A program made the position numbers and the translations under genes. The notes under the pieces are model-generated. The model was given only the letters and a program-made list of their open reading frames with translations. It ran no database searches and was not told the DNA's origin. Below are positions 1,967-51,381 of a stretch of 64,000 nt of DNA, one piece after another; positions within the stretch are counted from its first letter, which is position 1, and each line of letters starts with the position of its first letter. Source of the stretch: Lentimicrobiaceae bacterium (GTDB taxonomy: Bacteria; Bacteroidota; Bacteroidia; Bacteroidales; UBA4417); contig JAVBOY010000012.1 of the NCBI GenBank assembly GCA_031550085.1, positions 83,689-147,688 of the forward strand. Direction: 5' to 3'.

Positions 1967-2002
1967 AAACACCCCCTTACCGGAAAGGAAGAGGGTGTTT
2001 TT
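1967..2002. terminator. hairpin with T-run, downstream of the small RHH gene
   Basis: aaacaccc (1967-1974) pairs with gggtgttt (1993-2000), with partial inner pairing. It is followed by tt on the + strand and by ttt on the - strand. Confidence 0.45.
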
Positions 2003-2009
2003 GCAGGGG

Positions 2010-2177
2010 TTACTTTTCTTTCGGCGTCGCCTTATACCGGCCCGCTTTCTTCAGGCTTTCGCTCAGCATCCATTCAATCTGTCCGTTTACGCTGCGGAAT
2101 TCGTCGGCAGCCCATTTCTCAAGGGCCTCATACATGCTTTTATTTAAGCGCAGCGGAAAAACTTTCTTCTCGTCCAT
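2010..2177 (-). CDS. Arc/ribbon-helix-helix family small DNA-binding protein (55 aa, below the ORF-track cutoff)
   Basis: The reverse strand reads MDEKKVFPLRLNKSMYEALEKWAADEFRSVNGQIEWMLSESLKKAGRYKATPKEK, with ATG at 2177 and TAA at 2012-2010. The LEKWAADEFRSxNGQIE motif is typical of Arc-family proteins. The gene sits 9 nt downstream of the SPFH gene. Confidence 0.7.
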   Translation of the reverse strand: MDEKKVFPLRLNKSMYEALEKWAADEFRSVNGQIEWMLSESLKKAGRYKATPKEK

Positions 2178-2186
2178 AAAAAAATA

Positions 2187-3098
2187 CTATTGATGCAGTG
2201 TTCCTGCATTAATCACCGGTTTGGCTGCATGGTCGGAGCAAAGCACCACCAAGAGGTTGCTCACCATGGCCGCTTTTTTCTCTTCGTCCAGGTGTACGAT
2301 TTCCCGTTTCGACAATTTATCCAGGGCCATTTCCACCATGCCCACGGCGCCGTCCACAATTTTGGTGCGGGCCGAAATAACCGCTTGCGCTTGTTGGCGT
2401 TGCAGCATGGCGCTGGCGATTTCGGGTGCATAGGAAAGGTTCGATAACCGCGCTTCCTGAATGTCGATGCCGGCAATGATAAGGCGTTCGCGGATTTCTT
2501 CTTCCAGCGCCTTGTTGATTTCGTCCACACCCGACCGCAGGCAAATGGTGGATTCGTGCTCGTCGAAATCGTCGTAAGGGTAGGAGTGGGCCAGTTTCCG
2601 CAAAGCCGCTTCCACCTGGATTTTTACAAAACGCTCGAAAGCTTTGCTCGTGTACATGGGCAAACCCGTTTTCGGATTGGTTTCGCTCGAGTTTTCGATC
2701 ACAAAAGCCGCCTTGTAGGTGTCGATCACTTTCCACACCACAATGGCGCTGATGATAATGGGATTCCCCAGCAAATCGTTTACTTTGATAAAATCCGTTT
2801 CGAGGTTGTGCACCCGCAACGAAATTTTCCGTTTCACATAAAACGGATTCACCCAGAAAAATCCGTTTTCCTTTACCGTGCCTTTGTATTTACCGAACAA
2901 GGTCAGCACGCGCGATTGGTTGGGATTGATAACCATCAGTCCGGCAAACCAGAAAATGGAAAGCAAAAAAAGGATGCCGGTGCAGATGCCCAGCGCCAGA
3001 ATAGGAAACCAGAATAAAAGAAGCGGCGACAACAACATGATGATCGCCAGGAATAAATGTGCGTAGCCGTTTTGCGGGAGTTTAATAACTTTTTCCAT
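2187..3098 (-). CDS. SPFH/band-7 domain membrane protein
   Basis: Two N-terminal TM helices are followed by a band-7 core (VINPNQSRVLTLFGKYKGTV..GFFWVNPF..LRVHNLE) and a coiled C-terminal part (QRQQAQAVISAR). Confidence 0.9.
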   Translation of the reverse strand: MEKVIKLPQNGYAHLFLAIIMLLSPLLLFWFPILALGICTGILFLLSIFWFAGLMVINPNQSRVLTLFGKYKGTVKENGFFWVNPFYVKRKISLRVHNLETDFIKVNDLLGNPIIISAIVVWKVIDTYKAAFVIENSSETNPKTGLPMYTSKAFERFVKIQVEAALRKLAHSYPYDDFDEHESTICLRSGVDEINKALEEEIRERLIIAGIDIQEARLSNLSYAPEIASAMLQRQQAQAVISARTKIVDGAVGMVEMALDKLSKREIVHLDEEKKAAMVSNLLVVLCSDHAAKPVINAGTLHQ

Positions 3099-3910: not shown

Positions 3911-4238
3911 AAGTAAAATAATTAGTACATAATGTAAAAAATATTTTACATTTCAAATGAATTTTATTCTGGGTAAACTTGCAAACCGTCAATTCGTATT
4001 GAATCGCTTCGCGATGATCCAAGCCTTTAAAAAAGCCGGATACAAAATAAGATGTTCAAAAAACGGCACTACCGGAAGCATAAAGAATTTCGCCCCAAGG
4101 GCACCCGGATCGAATCCATATACGAACACGTTTGCTTTTCCGGCTTATTAATTTCTAGTTTACTAGTCTACTCGTTTACTACTTTACGAAATGATTCGTA
4201 TCTTTTTTTGAAGAAGTCCGATACGTTGTGTTTGGGGC

Positions 4239-4267
4239 AAAAAAAAAGTCCATCGCAAGGATGGACT
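4239..4267 (-). terminator. rho-independent terminator of hup
   Basis: agtccatc/gatggact stem (4247-4267) with a gcaag loop, followed on the - strand by nine T (A-run 4239-4247). Confidence 0.8.
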
Positions 4268-4290
4268 CAGGATTGTTTGCGTTCAATTAC

Positions 4291-4566
4291 TTATTTAACG
4301 CTTTTTACGAGGTCAGCACCAGCTTTAAATTTCACCACTTTTTTAGCAGCGATTTTAATTTCCTTGCCGGTTTGGGGATTACGGCCTTTACGAGCTGCAC
4401 GTTTTGCAACCGAGAAAGAACCAAATCCTACTAAAGCTACGCGATCGCCTTCTTTCTTAAGACTTTTTTGAGTAACTTTAACGAAAGCATCAATAGCTCT
4501 CTTGGAATCAGCTTTGGTTAAGCCTGATTCTGCTGCCATAGCATCAATTAATTCAGCTTTGTTCAT
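4291..4566 (-). CDS. hup: HU family DNA-binding protein
   Basis: [29 protein letters not shown]...[41 protein letters not shown] is a canonical HU sequence. Confidence 0.95.
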
Positions 4567-4612: not shown

Positions 4613-4620
4613 CAAAGATA
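4613..4620 (-). promoter_or_regulatory. -7 box TATCTTTG (TAnnTTTG) for hup
   Basis: + strand text caaagata, 47 nt upstream of ATG 4566. Confidence 0.45.
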
Positions 4621-12319: not shown

Positions 12320-13195
12320 TTAATCGGCAATCAGTTCTGCAAATTTCAACAAATTTTGTTGCCAGTCGGCATACATGGGATCAAATTCGACGATTTTGGC
12401 GCCGATTTCTTTGGCAATGGTTTCGGCGTTTTTGGTATCGAATTCTTTGGAAATAAACACCGTCCGGATTTGTTTTTGCCTTCCCAGATCGATCAATTGG
12501 CGTACATGAGCCGGAGAAGGTTCTTTGCCTTCGTCTTCGATACAAATTTGGGTTAAACCGTAATCGCGAGCAAAATAGCCCAAGGCCGGATGATAAATCA
12601 TAAAGCTTTTTCCTTCCTGTCCTTTTAACTTCCCGATTATGAGGGCATGGATGGAATCGGCCAGATGGTTGAATTTTTCCAGATTGCTTTTGTAAAAACC
12701 GGCATTTACCGAATCCAAAACACAGAGGCTGTGGCAAATGTTTGCCGCTTGTTGCTTGAGGCAGGTGGTCGACATCCAAATATGCGGATCGATGCTTTCG
12801 TGGGTGTGACCTTCGTGTTGGTGCAGGTGCCCGCTGAGCGGAGGGATGCCGGAATTGGTGTAAATAACATCCATTTTTGGGTTGGAGGATACCACACGCG
12901 GCAGCAGAGCTTGTTCAAAATCGAGCCAACCGATGGCAGCATACACACCGGCCTGCGAAATTTTTTCCATGTCGCGGGGAGTGGGTTCATAAGTTTCGTG
13001 ATTGCTTCCGGGCGGAAGCAGCACTTCTATCTGGAAGTTGTTTCCTGCAATCTGCTCAAACACTTGTTTTTGCGGTAAAATACTAACGACCGCAATTTTC
13101 TTTCCGGAATCCTTTGGAGGGGCTGGTTTGCAAGCGGTAAATAATGCAAAGCTTGCAACGACAGGCAGTAGGATGTTTTTGATAGGAGGTTTCAT
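12320..13195 (-). CDS. znuA: metal ABC transporter substrate-binding lipoprotein (ZnuA/TroA family)
   Basis: Lipobox LFTAC and a His-rich loop GHLHQHEGHTHESIDPHIW, which is typical of zinc-specific ZnuA. Confidence 0.9.
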   Translation of the reverse strand: MKPPIKNILLPVVASFALFTACKPAPPKDSGKKIAVVSILPQKQVFEQIAGNNFQIEVLLPPGSNHETYEPTPRDMEKISQAGVYAAIGWLDFEQALLPRVVSSNPKMDVIYTNSGIPPLSGHLHQHEGHTHESIDPHIWMSTTCLKQQAANICHSLCVLDSVNAGFYKSNLEKFNHLADSIHALIIGKLKGQEGKSFMIYHPALGYFARDYGLTQICIEDEGKEPSPAHVRQLIDLGRQKQIRTVFISKEFDTKNAETIAKEIGAKIVEFDPMYADWQQNLLKFAELIAD

Positions 13196-13595
13196 GAGGT
13201 GTTGAAGTGTTTAAGTGTTGAACTGTTGAATCGTTTAACTGTTGAGCTGTTATTTGTTGTTCGTTATTTGTTGAAACGTTTATTTGTTGAAACGTTTATT
13301 TGGTGAAATGTGAAATGGGGGGAACGGGAAGTGCTTGCTCGATTGATTTTAATACGATAATAGAATCTAATAATGTGTTATTTTAATTGCATAAAGTGAA
13401 ATGGCTGTTTAACTGTTTAATTGTTTATTTGTATCATCCCCCTTTCTGCTTTTTTCCTTTCTACATGACCACTCGTTACCCGTCACTTGAAAAACTCATT
13501 TGTAATTCCTTCTGCTATCTCCTTTCTGCTAAAAAAGTTTATCATTCATCATTAAAATACACATTTTCAATTTTTAACTTTCCATTTTCAATTAA
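13196..13595 (-). repeat. mosaic intergenic repeat, modules A-B-C (copy R2)
   Basis: Shares exact k-mers with 15435-15874: gtttatttggtgaaatgtgaa (13294-13314 and 15517-15537) and tttccattttcaattaat. Also carries the ctgcttttttcctttct module. Confidence 0.85.
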
Positions 13596-14858: not shown

Positions 14859-15434
14859 TTACGTAGTAACTTGTTGGCGGTTTTGCTCGCTCAGGTTAAA
14901 ATTTTCGGGGTGGCAGGCGGTTTTTTGTCTATAAAAATTTTCAATAATCTTAAAATCCATTTCGTAGTTTCCGGTGGTTTCCAGCAACGGCCCAATGCCC
15001 ACATGTTTGTTTTTATAATCCACGAATCCCAGCAAAATGGGTACGTGCGCTTGGTGTGCAATAAAATAAAATCCCTTTTTCCAGTTTTTGACCAGATTCC
15101 TGGACCCTTCGGGCGTAATGGTGATGATGAGTTCATCCTCTTTTAAAAGCATATCCACTACCTGATTGGTGGCATTGGCTCCTTTGCTGCGGTCTACCGG
15201 AATGCCGCCGCAACTTCTTAAAATCCCACCGAATGGGAAACGAAAGAATTCCTTCTTGATCAAATACTTAGCCCGGATGCCCAATCCCATGTAGCCGAAA
15301 AATCCGATGATAAAATCCCAAATGGATGTGTGCGGCGCGACAATAATAACCGCTTTCTTGATTTCGTCGGGTTTTTCGGTGGTAACATGCCAACCGAAAA
15401 GGCTTAAGATAAAACGTCCGGTTCGGGCTCTCAT
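14859..15434 (-). CDS. lysophospholipid (1-acyl-sn-glycerol-3-phosphate) acyltransferase family protein
   Basis: The HxxxxD motif appears as APHTSIWDF, and a PEGSR motif is present. The stop codon TAA directly abuts the ATG of the next gene. Confidence 0.8.
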   Translation of the reverse strand: MRARTGRFILSLFGWHVTTEKPDEIKKAVIIVAPHTSIWDFIIGFFGYMGLGIRAKYLIKKEFFRFPFGGILRSCGGIPVDRSKGANATNQVVDMLLKEDELIITITPEGSRNLVKNWKKGFYFIAHQAHVPILLGFVDYKNKHVGIGPLLETTGNYEMDFKIIENFYRQKTACHPENFNLSEQNRQQVTT

Positions 15435-15874
15435 TCGTTGTTGAATTGTTTATTTGTTGAATTGTTTATTGGGAGAAAATAGGGGAATGAGTGTTGAATT
15501 GTTGAGTTGTTGAACTGTTTATTTGGTGAAATGTGAACCGTGAAGTGGGTGTTGAAGTGTTGAGGTGTTGGACTGTTTATTGGTGTAGGGTATAAACTTG
15601 TTACCTATAACCTGTTAACTGAACGACACCCCCGCCCTTACGGGCACCCCCGCAAGCGGGGGATAGTTTTCTGCCTTCTGCTTTTTCCTTTCTGCTTTCT
15701 GCAATTAAAACTTGTTTACGCGTTACCCGTTACAAAACCTATTTTCAATTCTCAATTTTCCATTTTCAATTAATAAGCAGATTTCTTCCTTTCGCTTCGC
15801 TCCAGTCGAAATGACCTGTAATTCATCGTTAAACACTCATTTTTAATTCTTCATTTTTAATTTTTAATTAAAAC
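15435..15874 (-). repeat. mosaic intergenic repeat, modules A-B-hairpins-C (copy R3)
   Basis: Same modules as 13196-13595 and 46445-47013 (for example gccttctgctttttcctttc). Contains GC hairpins at 15627-15662. Confidence 0.85.
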
Positions 15875-41507: not shown

Positions 41508-41984
41508 TTACAAATCTGTTGGTTTATGTCCGAACATTTTCCCCGAAAAACGTTCCACATTGACTTTCATGCAACAAACATTGCGTACCGAAGGCTCGTT
41601 GTACTGAAATTCCTTTTTGGTATACATCGCCATGACATGATTCAGGAGGGTGATTTTTTCGTCGTAATCTTCCACGAACTCTACTTTTCCGAATGCCTGT
41701 ACCGAGCGGTAATGCATGGAATAACTGCATGCCATTTCTTCACTTTGCTTGTTCAACGCGTGATCGGTGCTGAATACAATGCAAACATTGGGATTATTCT
41801 TTAAAATATCAATCTTTTTGCCTTCCTGGGCGCCATGCAAAAAGATGGTGCCGTCGAAATAACCGAAATTGAACGGCAACACATAAGGCATCCCGTTTTC
41901 GTCGGTCATCCCCACATAGCAAACTTGGCAACGTTTGATAACTGAATCGATTTCAGACTGTTCGGTAAAAAAATGAGTTCGCAT
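41508..41984 (-). CDS. pyridoxamine 5'-phosphate oxidase family (split-barrel flavin-binding, Nim-like fold) protein
   Basis: CYVGMTDENGMPYVLPFNFGYFDGTIFLHGAQEGKKIDILKNNPNVCIVF. Confidence 0.8.
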   Translation of the reverse strand: MRTHFFTEQSEIDSVIKRCQVCYVGMTDENGMPYVLPFNFGYFDGTIFLHGAQEGKKIDILKNNPNVCIVFSTDHALNKQSEEMACSYSMHYRSVQAFGKVEFVEDYDEKITLLNHVMAMYTKKEFQYNEPSVRNVCCMKVNVERFSGKMFGHKPTDL

Positions 41985-42007
41985 GGTATTGAAATGAGTT
42001 GAAGGTT

Positions 42008-42015
42008 CAAAAGTA
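42008..42015 (-). promoter_or_regulatory. -7 box TACTTTTG
   Basis: + strand text caaaagta, 24 nt upstream of ATG 41984. Confidence 0.35.
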
Positions 42016-42151
42016 AAGATTTTGCCGATACATCCGCTTTGTTGAAACTTTTCATTTCATTTTTCTGTTGTCATACGCATACCGGTCACTTTCCGGGGAA
42101 ATAAATGGAACTATTTCCGGACGAAAGCACTACCTTCGCGCACTTTTTATC

Positions 42152-43090
42152 ATGAAAAATTCCCTTTCTTCTCAAAATACTTACAAAAGCGGATTGATGT
42201 ACGGTTTGGCGGCCTACACCGCCTGGGGCATGTTTCCTTTGTTCTGGAAACTGGTTTCCTCGGTTCCTGCCGAACAAATTTTGGCTCACCGCATCATTTG
42301 GTCCCTGGTGTTTGTATTTGCTTTGATGCTGTTTCAACGAGACAAAACCTATATTTCATATCTGAAAAACTTTAAAATACTTGGCTTGCTGACAGTTACG
42401 GGACTTTTAATTGGCGGAAATTGGTACATTTACATTTATGCGGTAAACACCAATCGTATATTGGATACCAGTTTGGGATATTACATCAGTCCGATCGCAA
42501 ATGTGTTTTTGGGCATTGTGTTTTTAAAAGAACGGTTAACCAAAATTCAGTACGTGGCTGTGGGATTTGCGTTGGCAGGAATTATTTGGTTGGCAATTCA
42601 GCACGGAAGCTTGCCTTGGATTTCCCTTAGCCTGCCGTTAAGTTTTTCGCTGTATGGTTTTTTACGTAAAAAAGCCAATCTCGAAGCATTTCCCAGCCTG
42701 CTTGTCGAAACCATTATTCTGACACCTATTGCCCTTCTTTTTTTGATTTATGCCGAAAGCCGGCATGTGGGCGTGTTTTTACACCAGGGATGGTTTATCG
42801 ATGTTATGTTGATTCTGGGAGGAGTAATTACTGCCATTCCGTTGCTTTGGTTTGGATTGGCCGCCGTTCGCATTCCCTTGTCTACCATTGGCTTCTTGCA
42901 ATACATTTCTCCCACCTTGCAATTGATAACGGGTGTTTTCGTATTTGGCGAATCGTTCGGGCACGAACGCTTTGTAAGTTTTATTTTGGTATGGATTGGG
43001 TTGGGGATTTATACGTATTCCCTGATTCATAAACTTCGCCTTAGCGCTAAGGCTGTACCTGCAAGTCCCGAAAGAGGGGGAAGAAATTAA
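42152..43090 (+). CDS. rarD: EamA-family transporter RarD
   Basis: GLMYGLAAYTAWGMFPLFWK.., 10 TM helices. ATG 42152 is preferred over the listed 42068. Confidence 0.9.
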   Translation: MKNSLSSQNTYKSGLMYGLAAYTAWGMFPLFWKLVSSVPAEQILAHRIIWSLVFVFALMLFQRDKTYISYLKNFKILGLLTVTGLLIGGNWYIYIYAVNTNRILDTSLGYYISPIANVFLGIVFLKERLTKIQYVAVGFALAGIIWLAIQHGSLPWISLSLPLSFSLYGFLRKKANLEAFPSLLVETIILTPIALLFLIYAESRHVGVFLHQGWFIDVMLILGGVITAIPLLWFGLAAVRIPLSTIGFLQYISPTLQLITGVFVFGESFGHERFVSFILVWIGLGIYTYSLIHKLRLSAKAVPASPERGGRN

Positions 43091-43386
43091 AAATTACGAA
43101 TAAGTTTCTGCAGTTAACGAGTTTACAGCTGATCTCAGCGAATCTCAGTGAACCCTCAGTGGCTCTCAGCGTAGCTTTTTAGCAGAAAGAAAAAAGCAGA
43201 AAGCAGACCGAGGAAACAAACAACAAAAAACAAACAACAATCTTTGAGCGTTGCACCATTTCAGCCTTCACATTTCACCAAACAAACAATTCAGCAACTT
43301 GTTAATATTCATGTAAAAAAGTAGGTTTTCGCAATTTTGGAATATTTTTTGAGTTTCCCCAGCATAAGCCAACAGCACTTCAAAAT
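43091..43386 (+). repeat. mosaic intergenic repeat in plus orientation (copy R4)
   Basis: Contains reverse complements of modules B and C as written at the other loci (agcagaaagaaaaaagcagaaagcag; ttcacatttcaccaaacaaacaattcagcaac). Shares the exact 28-mer aacaacaaaaaacaaacaacaatctttg (43219-43246) with the reverse strand of 46733-46760. Confidence 0.85.
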
Positions 43387-44271: not shown

Positions 44272-45684
44272 TTAACAATGTCCTTGCTTTTTTTCGGACG
44301 TTGAACAATGCAACACACATTGTTCGCAGTATGAAAGTTCGCCGCGCAGGCGTTTTTTAACCATATCATCCATTTGCAGACGCAATTCTGGAAGCTTGAT
44401 TTTTTGCACGATTTCGGCAGCAAAAGCGTACATCAGCAATATTTTGGCATTGCTTTCCGAAATACCCCGCGAGCGGATGTAAAACAAGGCTTCATTGTCC
44501 AGTTGCCCGACGGTCGCTCCGTGCGAGCATTTTACATCGTCGGCATAAATTTCTAAAAACGGTTTGCTGTCGATGGTCGCCTTGTCGGTGAGCAGAATAT
44601 TTTTGTTCGATTGGAATGCATTGGTTTTTTGCGCATCGCGATTTACCAGCACATGGCCGCTGAAAACGCCACTCGCCTGATCGTCCAGAATACCTTTGAA
44701 CAGTTGATTGCTCAAACAATTGGGTGCAGCATGCTCGATAAACAGTTGATTGTCGATGTGTTGCATTTTGTCCATTAGATACAGCCCCGAAACATCGGTT
44801 TCGGCATATTCCCCGGCCAGTTTGATATGCAGGTTGTTGCGGATGATGCCGCCGTTCAAGCTGATGGCATGGGTGTTAAAACGGCTGTTTTTTTCCTGGT
44901 TTACAAACAAAGAGTTTACCAACGTTGACTTGCTGTCTTTGTTTTGCAGCTTGTAATGATCGAGCGTTGCACCGGCATCGATAAAGATTTCCGACACCAC
45001 ATTGATAAAGGTTTGCGCATGTTTTTTAGTTTCGTCGCAATGCACGAGGCGCAAATGCGAATTTTTACCCAGCACAATCAAATTGCGGATGTTGAGGAAC
45101 AAATTTTCCTCGCAATCCACAATATTTACAATCTGGATCGGTTGCTTTACCGTCACCTGATCGGGTACATAAATAAAAAATCCGTCGTTGGCAACAGCCG
45201 TGTTCAAGGCAATCAAACCATCTTCACGGGTAACCTGTTTTTGGTAATACTTTTCAAAAAGTTCAGGGAAGCGGACAGCCGCTGCAGCAATACTCCCGAC
45301 AATCACGCCGTTTTCGAGTTGCTGGATTTTTTGTTGGTTGTAAATAAACGAACCGTTTAGCAACGCGATGGGGAAGGTGTTGAAATTGGGTACGTCGCAA
45401 CGGAAGACTTCATTTAAATCAATATTGTGGGTCATTGATTCAAAACCAAAGTTGTAAATTTTGTCTTCCAGGACCGGTTTCAAATCGGTTCCGCGCCAAT
45501 TCTCCATTTGGGCATGCGGAAAACCCATCGTACGAAAACGTTCCCATGCCCTTTCGCGTTCCGCTTTCAAGGCGCCCGATTTATCTGAAAATAAAGTCTC
45601 TTTATTTTTTAAATAATGATTTTCAACTATCTGGTCAATTTCCTGAAGGCTCATTGTTTCTAAAATACGTTGTTGAGTTTGCAT
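44272..45684 (-). CDS. sufD: Fe-S cluster assembly protein SufD (with Cys-rich C-terminal tail)
   Basis: SufBD beta-helix region (LVHCDE..HYKLQN..NNLHIKLAGE..VKCSHGATVGQLD..LFYIRSRGI). Lies downstream of sufC. Confidence 0.9.
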   Translation of the reverse strand: MQTQQRILETMSLQEIDQIVENHYLKNKETLFSDKSGALKAERERAWERFRTMGFPHAQMENWRGTDLKPVLEDKIYNFGFESMTHNIDLNEVFRCDVPNFNTFPIALLNGSFIYNQQKIQQLENGVIVGSIAAAAVRFPELFEKYYQKQVTREDGLIALNTAVANDGFFIYVPDQVTVKQPIQIVNIVDCEENLFLNIRNLIVLGKNSHLRLVHCDETKKHAQTFINVVSEIFIDAGATLDHYKLQNKDSKSTLVNSLFVNQEKNSRFNTHAISLNGGIIRNNLHIKLAGEYAETDVSGLYLMDKMQHIDNQLFIEHAAPNCLSNQLFKGILDDQASGVFSGHVLVNRDAQKTNAFQSNKNILLTDKATIDSKPFLEIYADDVKCSHGATVGQLDNEALFYIRSRGISESNAKILLMYAFAAEIVQKIKLPELRLQMDDMVKKRLRGELSYCEQCVLHCSTSEKKQGHC

Positions 45685-45703: not shown

Positions 45704-46444
45704 TTATGCTTTGAGCCATTCGTACCCTTTTTCTTCAAGTTCGATCGCCAGTTCTTTTCCTCCTGTTTTCACAATTTTGCCTTCGAAAAGTACATGCACC
45801 ACATCGGGGATAATGTGTTCGAGCAGCCGCTGATAGTGTGTAATAATCAGAGCGGCATTGTCGGGACGGCGCAATTTGTTTACACCCGAAGCTACCACAC
45901 GCAACGCATCAATATCCAATCCCGAATCGGTTTCGTCCAGAATGGCCAGTTTGGGCTCGAGCATGGCCATTTGAAAAATTTCGTTTTTCTTTTTTTCACC
46001 GCCCGAAAACCCTTCGTTTACCGAACGTCCGGTCAATTTTTCGTTCAACTCCAACAGCTTGCGTTTTTCTTCCATTTTTACCATAAATTCACCGGCAGGA
46101 ATGGGATCCATGCCACGGTATTTCCGCTGCTCGTTAATAGCCGTACGCAGGAAATTAATAATGCTCACGCCCGGAATTTCAACCGGATACTGGAAACCCA
46201 GAAAAATACCTTCACAAGCACGCTCTTCGGTAGAAAGCTCCAACAAGTTTTTTCCATTGAACCAAATTTCGCCCTCCGTTACATCATATCCCTCTTTCCC
46301 GGAAATCACATACGAAAGCGTACTCTTTCCCGTTCCGTTCGGCCCCATAATGGCATGTACTTCACCTGTCTTGATTTCAAGGTTAACGCCTTTTAAGATT
46401 TCTTTTCCGTTGATGGATGCGTGTAGGTTCTTTATTTTTAGCAT
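45704..46444 (-). CDS. sufC: Fe-S cluster assembly ATPase SufC
   Basis: MLKIKNLHASINGKEILKG, Walker A GPNGTGKST, FSGGEKKKNEI and Walker B ILDETDSGLDIDAL. Confidence 0.95.
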   Translation of the reverse strand: MLKIKNLHASINGKEILKGVNLEIKTGEVHAIMGPNGTGKSTLSYVISGKEGYDVTEGEIWFNGKNLLELSTEERACEGIFLGFQYPVEIPGVSIINFLRTAINEQRKYRGMDPIPAGEFMVKMEEKRKLLELNEKLTGRSVNEGFSGGEKKKNEIFQMAMLEPKLAILDETDSGLDIDALRVVASGVNKLRRPDNAALIITHYQRLLEHIIPDVVHVLFEGKIVKTGGKELAIELEEKGYEWLKA

Positions 46445-47013
46445 GATATTTTATTTCTTGTTTAATTGTTGTTGAAGTGTTGAATCGTTGAGTTGTTGAA
46501 CTGTTTAATTGTTTATTTGTGAAGCGTGAACGGGTTCAAGGTACACGGTGAAAGGTGAACGGTTAAGGGTGAGTTGCCTGTTTAATTGTTTAACTGTTTA
46601 TGCAGTGAAATGGAAAACTGGTTGGTATCCTTGGTTTTATCAATTGGGATAATTTAATTTACTATTATTCTATTTTAATCGCATACTGTGAAATGTGAAC
46701 GGTTAAGGGTGAAAGGTTCAGGACACACGGTGCAAAGATTGTTGTTTGTTTTTTGTTGTTCATTTACTTGCCATAAAAAATCCACTTTCAATTCTCCATT
46801 TTCAATTGAAATGCCTTCTGCTTTTTCCTTTCAGCATTAAAAACCAGTCTACTCGCCAACTTGTTTACCTGTATCAAAAAGGACACCCATTTTCAATTTT
46901 CAATTCTCCATTTTCAATTGAAATGCCTTCTGCCTTTTCCTTTCTGCATTAAAAACTAGTCTACTCGTCAACTTGTTTCCTTGTATTTAAAAAATCTCAT
47001 TTTCAATTTTCCA
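46445..47013 (-). repeat. mosaic intergenic repeat (copy R5) with an internal 112-bp tandem duplication at 46789-47012
   Basis: caattctccattttcaattgaaatgccttctgc... starts at both 46789 and 46901. C-module words occupy 46470-46760. Confidence 0.9.
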
Positions 47014-48462
47014 CTAACCCACGCTTCCTTCCAGGCTGATAGCCAGCAATTTCTGAGCTTCGATGGCAAATTCCATGGGCAGATGCTGCAACACCTGCTT
47101 GGCATAGCCGTTCACAATCAAACCGATGGCTTGTTCTGTTCCGATGCCACGTTGCTGGCAGTAGAAAAGTTGATCTTCCGAAATTTTACTGGTCGTAGCT
47201 TCATGTTCCACAATGGACGATGAATTTTCGGTATGGATGTAAGGCCAGGTATGCGCCCCGCATTTATCGCCCAGCAACAAACTGTCGCATTGGGAGAAAT
47301 TTCGGGCGTTTTCAGCCCGTTTGATGATTTTGACCAAGCCCCGGTACGAATTGTTGCTTTTTCCGGCCGAAATTCCCTTGGAAATAATGGTGGAACGCGT
47401 ATTTTTACCCAAATGAATCATTTTGGTTCCCGTATCGGCCTGTTGGTAGTTGTTGGTAACCGCAACCGAATAAAACTCGCCGATGCTGTGGTCGCCCATT
47501 AAGATCACACTGGGATATTTCCAGGTGATGGCGGCGCCGGTTTCCACCTGTGTCCATGAAATTTTCGAATGGGAGCCTTTGCAGATCCCGCGTTTGGTTA
47601 CAAAATTGTAAATACCGCCTTTGCCTTCTTTATCGCCCGGGTACCAGTTCTGAACCGTCGAATATTTTACTTCGGCATCTTTCATCGCCACAATTTCGAC
47701 GATAGCTGCATGCAGTTGGTTCTCATCGCGTTGCGGAGCGGTACAGCCTTCCATATAACTGACATAAGCGCCTTCGTCGGCTACAATCAATGTGCGTTCG
47801 AACTGTCCGGTATTGGCTGCATTGATGCGGAAATAAGTAGACAGTTCAATGGGGCAACGCACGCCCTTGGGAATGTAGCAAAACGAACCGTCGCTAAACA
47901 CCGCGGAATTTAATGCGGCAAAGTAATTGTCGGTTGGCGGAACCACCGATCCCATGTATTGGCGCACCAAATCGGGATGTTTTTGGACCGCTTCGCTGAA
48001 CGAGCAGAAAATGATGCCGTCTTTTTCCAACGTTTCTGTAAACGTGGTTTTGACCGAAACCGAATCGATAACCGCATCAACGGCCACACCGCTCAATTTT
48101 TTCTGCTCCTCGAGACTGATTCCCAATTTGTTAAACGTTTCTATTAATTCCGGATCCACTTCGTCCAAACTGGCCAATTCCTTTTTGGGTTTGGGTGCAG
48201 CATAGTAAATAATATCCTGATAATCAATTTCGTCGTGGTGTAAATGAGCCCAATGAGGTTCTTTGAGTGTGAGCCAGTGGCGATAGGCATTTAAGCGGAA
48301 TTCTAACAACCATTCCGGTTCGTTTTTCTTTGCCGAGATAAAACGGATTACATCTTCGTTCAGGCCGCGAGGAGCCGTTTCCATTTCAATATCGGTAAAA
48401 AAACCATACTTGTAATCGGAATTGGTTACTTCGCCTATGATATCGTTATTTTCTTTTTCCAT
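47014..48462 (-). CDS. sufB: Fe-S cluster assembly protein SufB
   Basis: YKYGF.TDIE...[24 protein letters not shown]...CTAP...GDKCGAHT.P...[24 protein letters not shown] 48462 was chosen as the start. Confidence 0.95.
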
Positions 48463-48510: not shown

Positions 48511-48518
48511 CAAAGGTA
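48511..48518 (-). promoter_or_regulatory. -7 box TACCTTTG for sufB
   Basis: + strand text caaaggta, 49 nt upstream of ATG 48462. Confidence 0.45.
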
Positions 48519-50911: not shown

Positions 50912-50932
50912 TTTCAATTTAACTAGCGGGTG

Positions 50933-50940
50933 CAAAATTA
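50933..50940 (-). promoter_or_regulatory. -7 box TAATTTTG for the U32 / radical SAM pair
   Basis: + strand text caaaatta, 22 nt upstream of ATG 50911. Confidence 0.4.
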
Positions 50941-51381
50941 CGGAAGTATAGTTAGATGAATCGTGAATAATTGGTAAAAATTAGTTTCCCTTGGGTGGTA
51001 AAAGAATGACTGTCAAATTAATTTGAGAGAGCGGATTGCTTTTTTTATTGATACCTGGATCTAAATTTTACCGTTGTTTTGTTGTAAAATGTGTTGTAAG
51101 TAGCTAAAAATAAAAACGTTAATTTTTTTTTAAATAAACAAAGCTTTTAGTCTCAGAGTGAGATGGGTGTACCACTATTTTAGAAGTTTTACTCGAAAAA
51201 TTTGTGAAATCACTGCACACATAAGGTTATTTCCTATTTTTGTCAAAGCATTTTTGATAAAGAATGTTGGAGAGCGATAAAGTCTTGTATTTTGGAGAAT
51301 GATAAAGTTGGGGAATAGAAATTGAAAATGATATAAATAGTAATAGCATAAAAAATGTACCAGCATTAAACTAGCGATAAA

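Follow-up and report, generated by a model that had tools for sequence, protein, structure and literature searches.

A mosaic of heptad and octad words fills the 569-nt non-coding spacer between sufB and sufC in a Lentimicrobiaceae bacterium

The bacterial interspersed mosaic elements (BIMEs) of enterobacteria contain repetitive extragenic palindromic (REP) units, i.e. palindromic stem-loops that stabilize upstream mRNA; the short tandemly repeated repetitive (STRR) sequences of cyanobacteria are heptanucleotide repeats, tandemly amplified in non-coding transcribed regions and present in high copy; and the palindromic elements of Rickettsia are found inserted in frame in genes. The SUF genes, which serve iron-sulfur cluster building, are usually tightly packed and, to our knowledge, encode the main or sole iron-sulfur cluster system of most Bacteroidales. 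Here, a 569-nt spacer made of short repeated words, which separates sufB from sufC in an uncultured gut Lentimicrobiaceae bacterium, is described and compared with such elements; it lies in a stretch of 64,000 nucleotides (contig JAVBOY010000012.1, positions 83,689 to 147,688), in the following called the window, whose own numbering is used throughout. TAACTGA heptamer arrays have been reported in Beggiatoaceae, cyanobacteria and five Bacteroidetes, and a role in translation or in RNA binding, as well as an origin by slippage, has been proposed for them (MacGregor 2015, PMC4679880), and 'long simple sequence repeats' have been treated by Mrazek 2007, as cited in PMC4679880. BrickBuilt of Porphyromonas gingivalis is built from 23-nt bricks with leader and tail subunits, has inverted-repeat ends and exhibits bidirectional promoter activity (PMC4596501). 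With moderate confidence, the element between sufB and sufC is read here as a promoterless, transcribed, non-coding intercistronic spacer that holds one copy of an orientation-specific mosaic repeat.

The three suf genes of the window lie on the minus strand, adjacent and co-directional as in a suf operon, and their products all score above the cut-offs of the respective models: sufB (47014..48462; NCBIfam NF008773, SufB equivalog, 909 bits), sufC (45704..46444; TIGR01978, 364 bits, with relatives aligning from residue 1) and sufD (44272..45684; TIGR01981, 285 bits). The likely sufB start, read from the N-terminus, is the ATG at 48460-48462, the mechanical open reading frame (ORF) reaching a TTG at 48513, and its TAG stop is at 47014-47016. 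The gene after sufD is convergent and, therefore, the unit is here sufB-sufC-sufD. An earlier note on this DNA had placed sufC and sufD 19 nt apart and sufB and sufC 569 nt apart (46445-47013, minus strand), and both distances were recovered when the coordinates were re-checked. Its statement that suf genes are normally tightly linked holds in so far as the sufB-sufC junctions of relatives are short, but they are not tight (median 53 nt, interquartile range 39-106, at 61 loci with sufB directly upstream). Sequencing depths given below derive from two public runs of the same study of an invertebrate gut metagenome, one of DNA, in which the genome is found at ~61x, and one of RNA (metatranscriptome).

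Every base of the spacer could be assigned to a module of the repeat family, in agreement with the earlier description of it as made entirely of family modules. On the sense strand, purine-rich, C-poor heptads are followed by a 28-mer, by C-rich heptads, by an AT-rich core and, then, by G-poor octads. In detail, the tiling begins at the sufB TAG with short A heptads (46996-47013) and continues with the linker of the sufB-proximal unit (46951-46995), B heptads (46924-46950), a full A that spans the boundary between two tandem units (46886-46923), the linker (46839-46885) and B (46812-46838) of the sufC-proximal unit, a truncated A (46782-46811) and a 21-nt tail (46761-46781). The core word of module A, AATTGAAAATGGAGAATTGAAAATTGAAAAT (46889..46919), is composed of TTGAAAA/TGGAGAA heptads, and its 31-mers reach 53-84 times the single-copy depth in the DNA run. 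The 28-mer AACAACAAAAAACAAACAACAATCTTTG, listed as a module in the earlier note, comes next (46733-46760); it is found again, without mismatch, on the opposite strand at 43219-43246, where no match is expected by chance. A first block of C-rich heptads (46688-46732; cctttca/cccttaa/ccgttca/catttca, repeat family D7, lag-7 autocorrelation 0.57) leads into the AT-rich core of about 75 nt (46614-46687), which is homologous to 13290-13440 in a sister copy. Across their junction lies a conserved 25-nt block, CATTTCACAGTATGCGATTAAAATA (46671-46695), common to the suf spacer and the copy at 13196-13595, in which the consensus CATTTCACnnTATGCrATTAAAATA is the same save for the three degenerate (N/R) positions. 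A second C-rich heptad block with interspersed octads (46519-46613; families D1, D2 and D7) and a G-poor C/A octad array, NTTNAACA (46457-46518; periods 8 and 24 in Tandem Repeats Finder, lag-8 autocorrelation 0.52), complete the mosaic, the octads being separated from the sufC ATG by the last 12 nt (46445-46456). The stretch from the octads to the ATG (46445-46518) is proposed to act as an unstructured leader. Copies of the C words and octads are also present at 13198-13337 and 15421-15602, which upholds part of the earlier description of this half of the spacer as ~290 nt of module-C words; the same stretch, however, includes the AT-rich core of ~75 nt, which is single-copy at the 31-mer level (DNA depth 58) and has the lowest RNA depth of the spacer (6.9).

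The periodic nature of the spacer is evident from its autocorrelation, which peaks at lags 7, 8 and 112 (0.41-0.57 at lag 7 and 0.52 at lag 8 versus 0.28-0.31 expected), and from the short-period arrays (8, 14 and 24 nt) identified at 46468-46572 by Tandem Repeats Finder. Its composition is equally constrained: on the sense strand, C is only 8% in the A/B half and G only 8% in the C-rich part (46445-46605), so that each half is written with little more than three letters (A, G and U in the first, A, C and U in the second), and the sense RNA is hardly able to fold. Indeed, 100 out of 100 dinucleotide shuffles of the suf spacer fold at least as well as the actual sense RNA (z = +2.39; +2.37 when re-computed). 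The sense RNA of the copy at 13196 behaves likewise (z = +2.33); of six ordinary co-directional gaps in the window, five have more structure than their shuffled counterparts (z from -0.7 to -3.5). No intrinsic terminator (a GC-rich hairpin followed by a T run) is present on either strand between 46300 and 47150, no Rfam model matches at its gathering score in the whole window, the sole match below E = 1 being to a eukaryotic long non-coding RNA model (E = 0.68), and no tRNA or tmRNA was found. Terminal inverted repeats were not found either, the best inverted pairs (10-20 nt, 70-100%) being internal and the A-heptad and octad ends not being complementary. No target-site duplication is visible by eye at the three large copies of the family, where the elements fill the stop-to-start space and leave no empty site for comparison. 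Three candidate identities were considered and rejected: a hidden small gene, the longest sense ORF being of 38 residues and of low complexity; a riboswitch, attenuator or REP-type structured RNA, the RNA being less structured than shuffled sequences; and a gene remnant, derived from the ORFs present in the long sufB-sufC spacers of relatives, the best tblastn match (E = 0.01) falling in a low-complexity stretch.

TAnnTTTG is the -7 promoter box of Bacteroidetes documented in the literature. In the window, 25 of its 73 occurrences fall in the 11.6% of intergenic sequence, mostly 5-160 nt before a start codon. Upstream of sufB, the box TACCTTTG (TAccTTTG; 48511..48518, minus strand, from a pattern scan with the sequence verified) is the only one between 48518 and sufD. 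There is none in 46445-47013 on either strand, the nearest approach being AAtcTTTG at 46733-46740, one mismatch off, since the 28-mer terminates in AAtcTTTGca; nor is there one in any of the four family spacers. By comparison, the window has seven other co-directional gaps of more than 150 nt, of which five carry a box in the sense orientation of their flanking genes and a sixth has one on the opposite strand only.

In the RNA run, sufB is covered at 34-40x and sufCD at 22-26x. Along the spacer, depth goes from 34x at 46912-47100 to 12.7x at 46727-46810 and 6.9x at 46543-46756, to return to 22x at 46400-46506; thus, the steady-state level of spacer RNA is 3-5 times below that of either flanking gene. 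The divergent promoter gaps at 50914-51276 and 41984-42163 have zero RNA depth among genes at 10-41x (bin averages), and, therefore, the run reports real RNA rather than DNA carry-over. The same dip is found in the copy at 13196, at 6.3x versus 12.9x for the upstream gene and 19.3x for the downstream one. The coverage across sufB-sufC that the earlier note had suggested to inspect is, thus, continuous over the unique parts of the spacer. Its conditional claim that the element forms part of a long internal untranslated region of the suf operon agrees with this continuity and with the lack of a -7 box, of a terminator and of a credible ORF, but needs to be amended in three respects: part of the element, a 112-nt duplication, may be polymorphic or assembly-specific, the RNA is not a uniform polycistron, and the family is not merely a private repeat. 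Since spacer RNA is 3-5 times scarcer than its neighbours, the transcript is probably processed or partly read through, rather than being a uniform polycistronic RNA.

The explanation that we favour brings these features together as follows. RNA polymerase would start from the TAccTTTG box upstream of sufB and read through the spacer; with no -7 box, no terminator and only weakly folding RNA in its way, sufB-sufC-sufD would, therefore, stay one transcription unit. Cleavage or decay probably removes the untranslated spacer RNA more rapidly than the translated parts, with the AT-rich core as the likeliest site, and such a loss would explain the 3-5-fold lower abundance. In Bacteroidia, translation initiates without Shine-Dalgarno pairing, is tuned by mRNA structure and benefits from leaders that lack structure (PMC6847099, PMC7797042). 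By these rules, sufC translation would be initiated de novo, independently of a Shine-Dalgarno sequence, on the single-stranded, G-poor octad leader. Composition and orientation of the modules are such that only harmless sequence, i.e. unstructured, promoter-free and terminator-free, is permitted at this position, and the extra length may be useful or merely tolerated. As to its origin, the sequence plainly shows periodicities, a tandem unit and sister copies that are colinear, and the mosaic would have arisen by slipped-strand or unequal-crossover duplication, combined with sequence exchange with sister copies, and not by transposition.

The 112-nt tandem duplication that the earlier note had singled out is found as such, in the assembled sequence, with Tandem Repeats Finder (46786-47011, period 112, 2.0 copies, 88% matches). 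The sufB-proximal unit (46901..47012, minus strand) contains the short A, a linker, B and the start of the full A, and the sufC-proximal one (46789..46900, minus strand) contains A, a linker, B and the truncated A; without gaps, the two agree at 90 of 112 positions, and the super-unit corresponds to 16 heptads (16 x 7 nt). The public runs, however, lend independent support to the first of these units and not to the second. The sufB-proximal unit is matched at 100% by a single-copy DNA unitig spanning 46904-47683, and five of its five index words are present in both runs. In the sufC-proximal unit, the linker at 46836-46883 has zero depth in both runs at a likeness of at least 97% (with 100% identity giving a shorter zero-depth stretch), and none of seven index words from 46815-46905 was found in any public run. 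DNA unitigs of ~58-63x run at 100% identity into sufC and sufB (45968-46498, 46543-46756, 46731-46810 and 46904-47683). All unique parts other than this linker are matched at 100% in both runs. Because these other parts are also matched by single-copy DNA unitigs, the spacer as such is real and is at least ~457 nt long with one unit; the k = 31 unitigs fit a one-unit allele. Thus, the 112-nt duplication may be polymorphic or else confined to this assembly, copy-number polymorphism being the simplest reading of the missing unit. At 46774 and 46816, single-base differences in the length of homopolymer runs were also seen with respect to public-run contigs, which may reflect other family copies or consensus errors in the window.

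Sister copies of the family are found at 13196..13595 (minus strand), where the copy separates a UDP-GlcNAc dehydrogenase gene from a ZnuA-like one, and at 15435..15874 (minus strand), between dnaX and an acyltransferase gene, both with the same module order, the latter with GC-rich hairpins in the core. A partial copy (B, the 28-mer and C words) lies at 43091..43386 on the plus strand, in the same orientation relative to its flanking genes. All family copies are located between co-directional genes, with module order and orientation relative to transcription preserved. In the three large copies, the A heptads start 0-5 nt past the upstream stop codon, and the distance from the last octad to the downstream ATG is 12 nt for sufC, 2 nt for the gene at 13195 and 3 nt for the gene at 15434. 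The module A word occurs in the window at 46889-46919, 15741-15771 and 13563-13593. Exact module 31-mers range from 114 to 5132x in the DNA run, i.e. from ~2 to 84 copies, and short-read contigs break at each family copy; in practice, such repeats interrupt short-read assemblies of these genomes about every 10 kb. In the dnaX-acyltransferase copy, the GC-rich hairpins cccccgcttgcggggg and gcccgtaagggcggggg (15640-15670, minus strand) replace the AT-rich core, and the antisense strand is unusually structured (z = -2.75). A tandem pair of a 273-bp unit at 1439-1903 (81-94% identity) holds B-like and 28-mer-like words in plus-strand orientation, carries a TAtcTTTG / AAtcTTTG box on the minus strand and adjoins a small ribbon-helix-helix-like ORF. 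A solitary linker word is found downstream of a putative gene for an HU-type DNA-binding protein; this gene, identified by eye (4291-4565, minus strand), has a TAtcTTTG box at 4620 and a hairpin-and-T-run terminator, and the longer plus-strand ORF over it (4052-4471) has no Pfam match and is apparently spurious.

Among the species representatives of GTDB, the best SufC matches, at 81%, belong to uncultured Bacteroidales and Lentimicrobium-like metagenome-assembled genomes (MAGs); a protein search retrieved closer relatives, with SufC at 86%. Five long sufB-sufC spacers of relatives (271, 386, 796, 985 and 1329 nt) contain ORFs of at least 50 residues that are unrelated to the suf spacer studied here, and others, one of 275 nt and some of 168-256 nt, are composed of short-period words. 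A pair formed by an SPFH/Band-7 gene and a small ORF, with the common motif ...EKWAADEFRSVNGQ..., is found in the window at 1990-3098 (minus strand), and such a pair also fills the 1329-nt sufB-sufC spacer of an Alistipes MAG (L080 1825-3155). In the closest relative (86%; L203, L204), CGTTCAAA/CGCTCAAA octads precede sufC at a contig break (L203 1-131), and sufC and sufD are separated by 417 nt (L203 876-1292) of a word mosaic whose folding, too, is poorer than that of shuffles (z = +1.6). The latter spacer begins at the stop codon with ATAGTGA/ACAGTGA heptads, after which other words make up three tandem units of ~108-116 nt; thus, a super-unit of ~110 nt is common to this relative and the window, with a different sequence. 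The corresponding gaps measure 311 and 171 nt in another relative, and 62 and 95 nt in one at 84%. A BLAST search of the spacer against 2.1 Mb of fetched loci found no module except module A. In the comparison of suf loci among relatives, which the earlier note had called for, the architecture is similar at the sufC-sufD junction of the closest relative, the words differ and module A alone is common. It follows from the spacers of the relatives that the architecture recurs in the sub-lineage at different junctions and with different words.

A survey of arrays with a period of 7 or 8 nt, or multiples thereof, was extended to 1.30 Mb from 80 related genomes. Among the 33 arrays that abut a stop codon, G exceeds C on the sense strand in 27, the opposite holds for 5 and there is one tie (binomial p = 1.1e-4), whereas arrays abutting start codons in relatives exhibit no such bias (8 vs 10). 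With G in excess in 27 of 32 arrays, C-poor heptads at the stop codon appear to be an order-wide habit and not a peculiarity of this genome, the suf spacer being an extreme case of such strand-specific repeats. As far as could be found, this regularity has not been described before.

Module A also extends well beyond this genome. The pattern AATTGAAAATGGANANTTNANAATTGAAAAT is found exactly in at least 120 metagenome contigs; where the biome is stated in the contig names, among the matches listed, it is human gut for most and marine for one. By these matches, module A is a word that occurs across the Bacteroidales, and the family is not simply a private repeat. Among the same listed matches, it lies directly after stop codons (including in a groES-groEL spacer), as one arm of long hairpins, in promoter regions and within ORFs, in frame, where it encodes IENG[EK]L[KRTI]IEN (33 distinct cases in ORFs of at least 100 codons). 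Five of six such ORFs tested against Pfam were confirmed as genes, the sixth having no Pfam match; the five encode a type IX secretion system (T9SS) sorting domain, Cas1, a DegT aminotransferase, a GATase domain and a sugar transferase, the GATase-domain ORF being GMP synthase by its PDB matches. In the DegT protein, the product of module A is a 10-residue insertion relative to a solved homologue (PDB 1o61). A literature search by sequence words found no paper containing the words of module A. In several of the T9SS sorting-domain genes (L134, L150, L151), a reverse-complement partner word, which encodes IFN(F/S)Q(F/L)S..., follows module A after ~36-45 nt and places a hairpin stem of ~30 bp within the coding sequence. 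Of the present results, the stop-codon arrays seen across the order and the occurrence of the module A word in frame most deserve further study.

Several observations weigh against the favoured explanation: the RNA of sufCD (22-26x) exceeds that of the spacer core (6.9x) and, at the copy at 13196, the downstream gene (19.3x) exceeds the upstream one (12.9x), a rise in depth that an internal transcription start explains more simply than differential decay. Furthermore, Rho prefers long, untranslated, unstructured RNA that is rich in C and poor in G, so that a strong polarity on sufCD would be expected, which is not seen; the RNA contigs are unstranded k-mer contigs with averaged depth, which cannot prove a single continuous molecule or its strand; the second, sufC-proximal tandem unit is not in the public runs; and the role proposed for the octads in sufC translation draws on the translation rules of Bacteroidia and not on experiment. 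The main alternative, which we regard as unlikely, is that there are two transcription units, with factor-dependent termination in the spacer and an unconventional promoter, which may lie in the AT-rich core or in the C/octad part, restarting sufCD. It explains the depth profile more directly, including the dip to 6.3x in the sister copy, and could account for the 25-nt block conserved in the AT-rich core of two copies, as well as for a sigma-70-like TTCACA-16-TAAAAT at 46699-46672; the C-rich, G-poor composition also resembles a Rho loading site (C 27%, G 8%, unstructured and untranslated), a fit by composition alone. On the other hand, no TAnnTTTG is present on either strand of any family spacer, though the genome clearly uses this box, and the sequence downstream of the dip is nearly G-free and, thus, leaves no room for a TTTG element. 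The sister copy does not preserve the sigma-70-like spacing, and RNA coverage of the spacer never falls to zero, unlike that of true promoter-only gaps. Unitig depths, being averaged and with neighbouring unitigs common to other copies, cannot place an RNA 5' end. Another improbable reading sees the arrays as cis-regulatory platforms for a protein that binds single-stranded RNA, with about one protein every 7-8 nt, such as a cold-shock-domain protein, ribosomal protein S1 or another OB-fold (oligonucleotide/oligosaccharide-binding fold) protein. Such a coat would shield the untranslated RNA from Rho and RNases and set the SufB:SufC ratio. It would suit the strict 7- and 8-nt periods, the single-stranded state of the RNA, an orientation relative to transcription that is conserved here and in the stop-codon arrays of 80 relatives (p = 1e-4), and the exact conservation of the module A word in many Bacteroidales. 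Binding of CspB to heptamer direct repeats, with one protein for each heptamer, has been reported, and for TAACTGA heptamer arrays S1, Csp and CsrA have been proposed as binders (PMC4679880). Against it, close relatives have, module A aside, entirely different words, which speaks against a partner that recognizes sequence; the binders named are candidates, none being identified; and polymerase slippage alone yields heptamer periodicity (Mrazek 2007, as cited in PMC4679880). A still broader proposal, which is doubtful, is that the Bacteroidales have an undescribed, order-wide system of RNA elements that are strand-specific and of short period. Arrays of C-poor heptads located precisely at stop codons and, in this lineage, G-poor arrays at start codons may keep intercistronic RNA single-stranded and serve as platforms for an OB-fold or cold-shock-type coat protein, which may shield it from Rho and RNases and hand ribosomes to start codons that lack a Shine-Dalgarno sequence. 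The module A word may spread by templated patching and so enter genes in frame, as IENGELKIEN may have done in T9SS sorting domains, Cas1, DegT and GuaA. If so, the suf spacer would represent an overgrown case, in which SufB expression is uncoupled from that of SufCD.

Two further explanations concern the sequence itself. That the spacer, or its tandem duplication, is an artefact of assembly is hardly credible, despite the unsupported stretch at 46836-46883 (at a likeness of at least 97%) and the 0 of 7 index words of 46815-46905 found in any run. Indeed, DNA unitigs of single-copy depth cover the other unique parts at 100% and continue into sufC and sufB, and the two units differ at 12-20% of positions, a divergence that collapse or expansion errors do not produce, making assembly expansion unlikely. 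A MITE-like element (MITE: miniature inverted-repeat transposable element) that transposed into the operon, as BrickBuilt of P. gingivalis, would be multi-copy, intergenic, species-specific and with a tandem-repeat interior, all of which apply here, and in the same bacterial order as BrickBuilt (PMC4596501). Yet we consider it very unlikely: terminal inverted repeats are lacking, no target-site duplication is visible by eye at three copies, and the element has no fixed ends, spanning instead the exact interval between stop codon and start codon, with all copies seen facing the same way relative to transcription.

Taken as a promoterless transcribed spacer, the element indicates that the suf operon here tolerates or uses more than 0.5 kb of untranslated RNA in its middle, and that the closest relative does likewise at a different junction and with different words. 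Its rules are a part nearly devoid of C after the stop codon, one nearly devoid of G before the start codon, periods of 7/8 nt and the lack of both promoter and hairpin; together, they represent a natural design of inert spacer RNA for bacteria whose translation proceeds without Shine-Dalgarno pairing. Should the arrays be more than products of slippage that are tolerated, they would offer a handle on how internal cistrons are initiated in Bacteroidia, on how operon RNA escapes Rho and on the proteins that bind single-stranded mRNA.

With respect to the known systems, the suf spacer is closest to the heptamer arrays. It consists of tandem direct repeats of 5-11-nt units, as do long simple sequence repeats and heptamer arrays, and is intergenic, in forward orientation and next to the downstream start codon. 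As in the arrays of PMC4679880, tandem 7-nt words lie forward just upstream of start codons, sometimes abutting stops, larger assemblages of different heptamers are found, and close relatives have short repeat-free spacers. Its words, however, are others (TTGAAAA/TGGAGAA, GCAGAAA/GGAAAAA, CCNTTCA and NTTNAACA, with no TAACTGA) and come in a fixed order, C-poor after the stop codon and then G-poor before the start codon; it also differs from TAACTGA arrays in its super-unit of 112 nt, in a core that is conserved and not repetitive, in dispersed copies that are colinear, and in lying within an essential operon, with RNA evidence. With BIME/REP it has in common the mosaic of short modules in variable numbers, high copy, orientation and a location in transcribed intercistronic or 3' regions, but it contains no palindromes and folds less than shuffled sequence, so that it is not a REP element. 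Like BrickBuilt (PMC4596501), it belongs to the Bacteroidales, is always intergenic, multi-copy, strain- or species-specific and transcribed, and has a tandem-repeat interior; unlike BrickBuilt, it lacks inverted ends and a -7 promoter box, and its words are of 7-8 nt. Its heptamers resemble STRR in being tandemly amplified, non-coding, transcribed and of high copy in the genome, in another phylum and with other words. We know of no fixed stop-to-start architecture described for STRR. Module A only, as a short repeated word found both between genes and in frame in unrelated genes, recalls the Rickettsia palindromic elements, but it is of ~30 nt, is not palindromic alone and spans a whole order rather than one genus. 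Thus, the spacer has the defining features of a heptamer array, with other words and with a two-class architecture that runs from stop codon to start codon.

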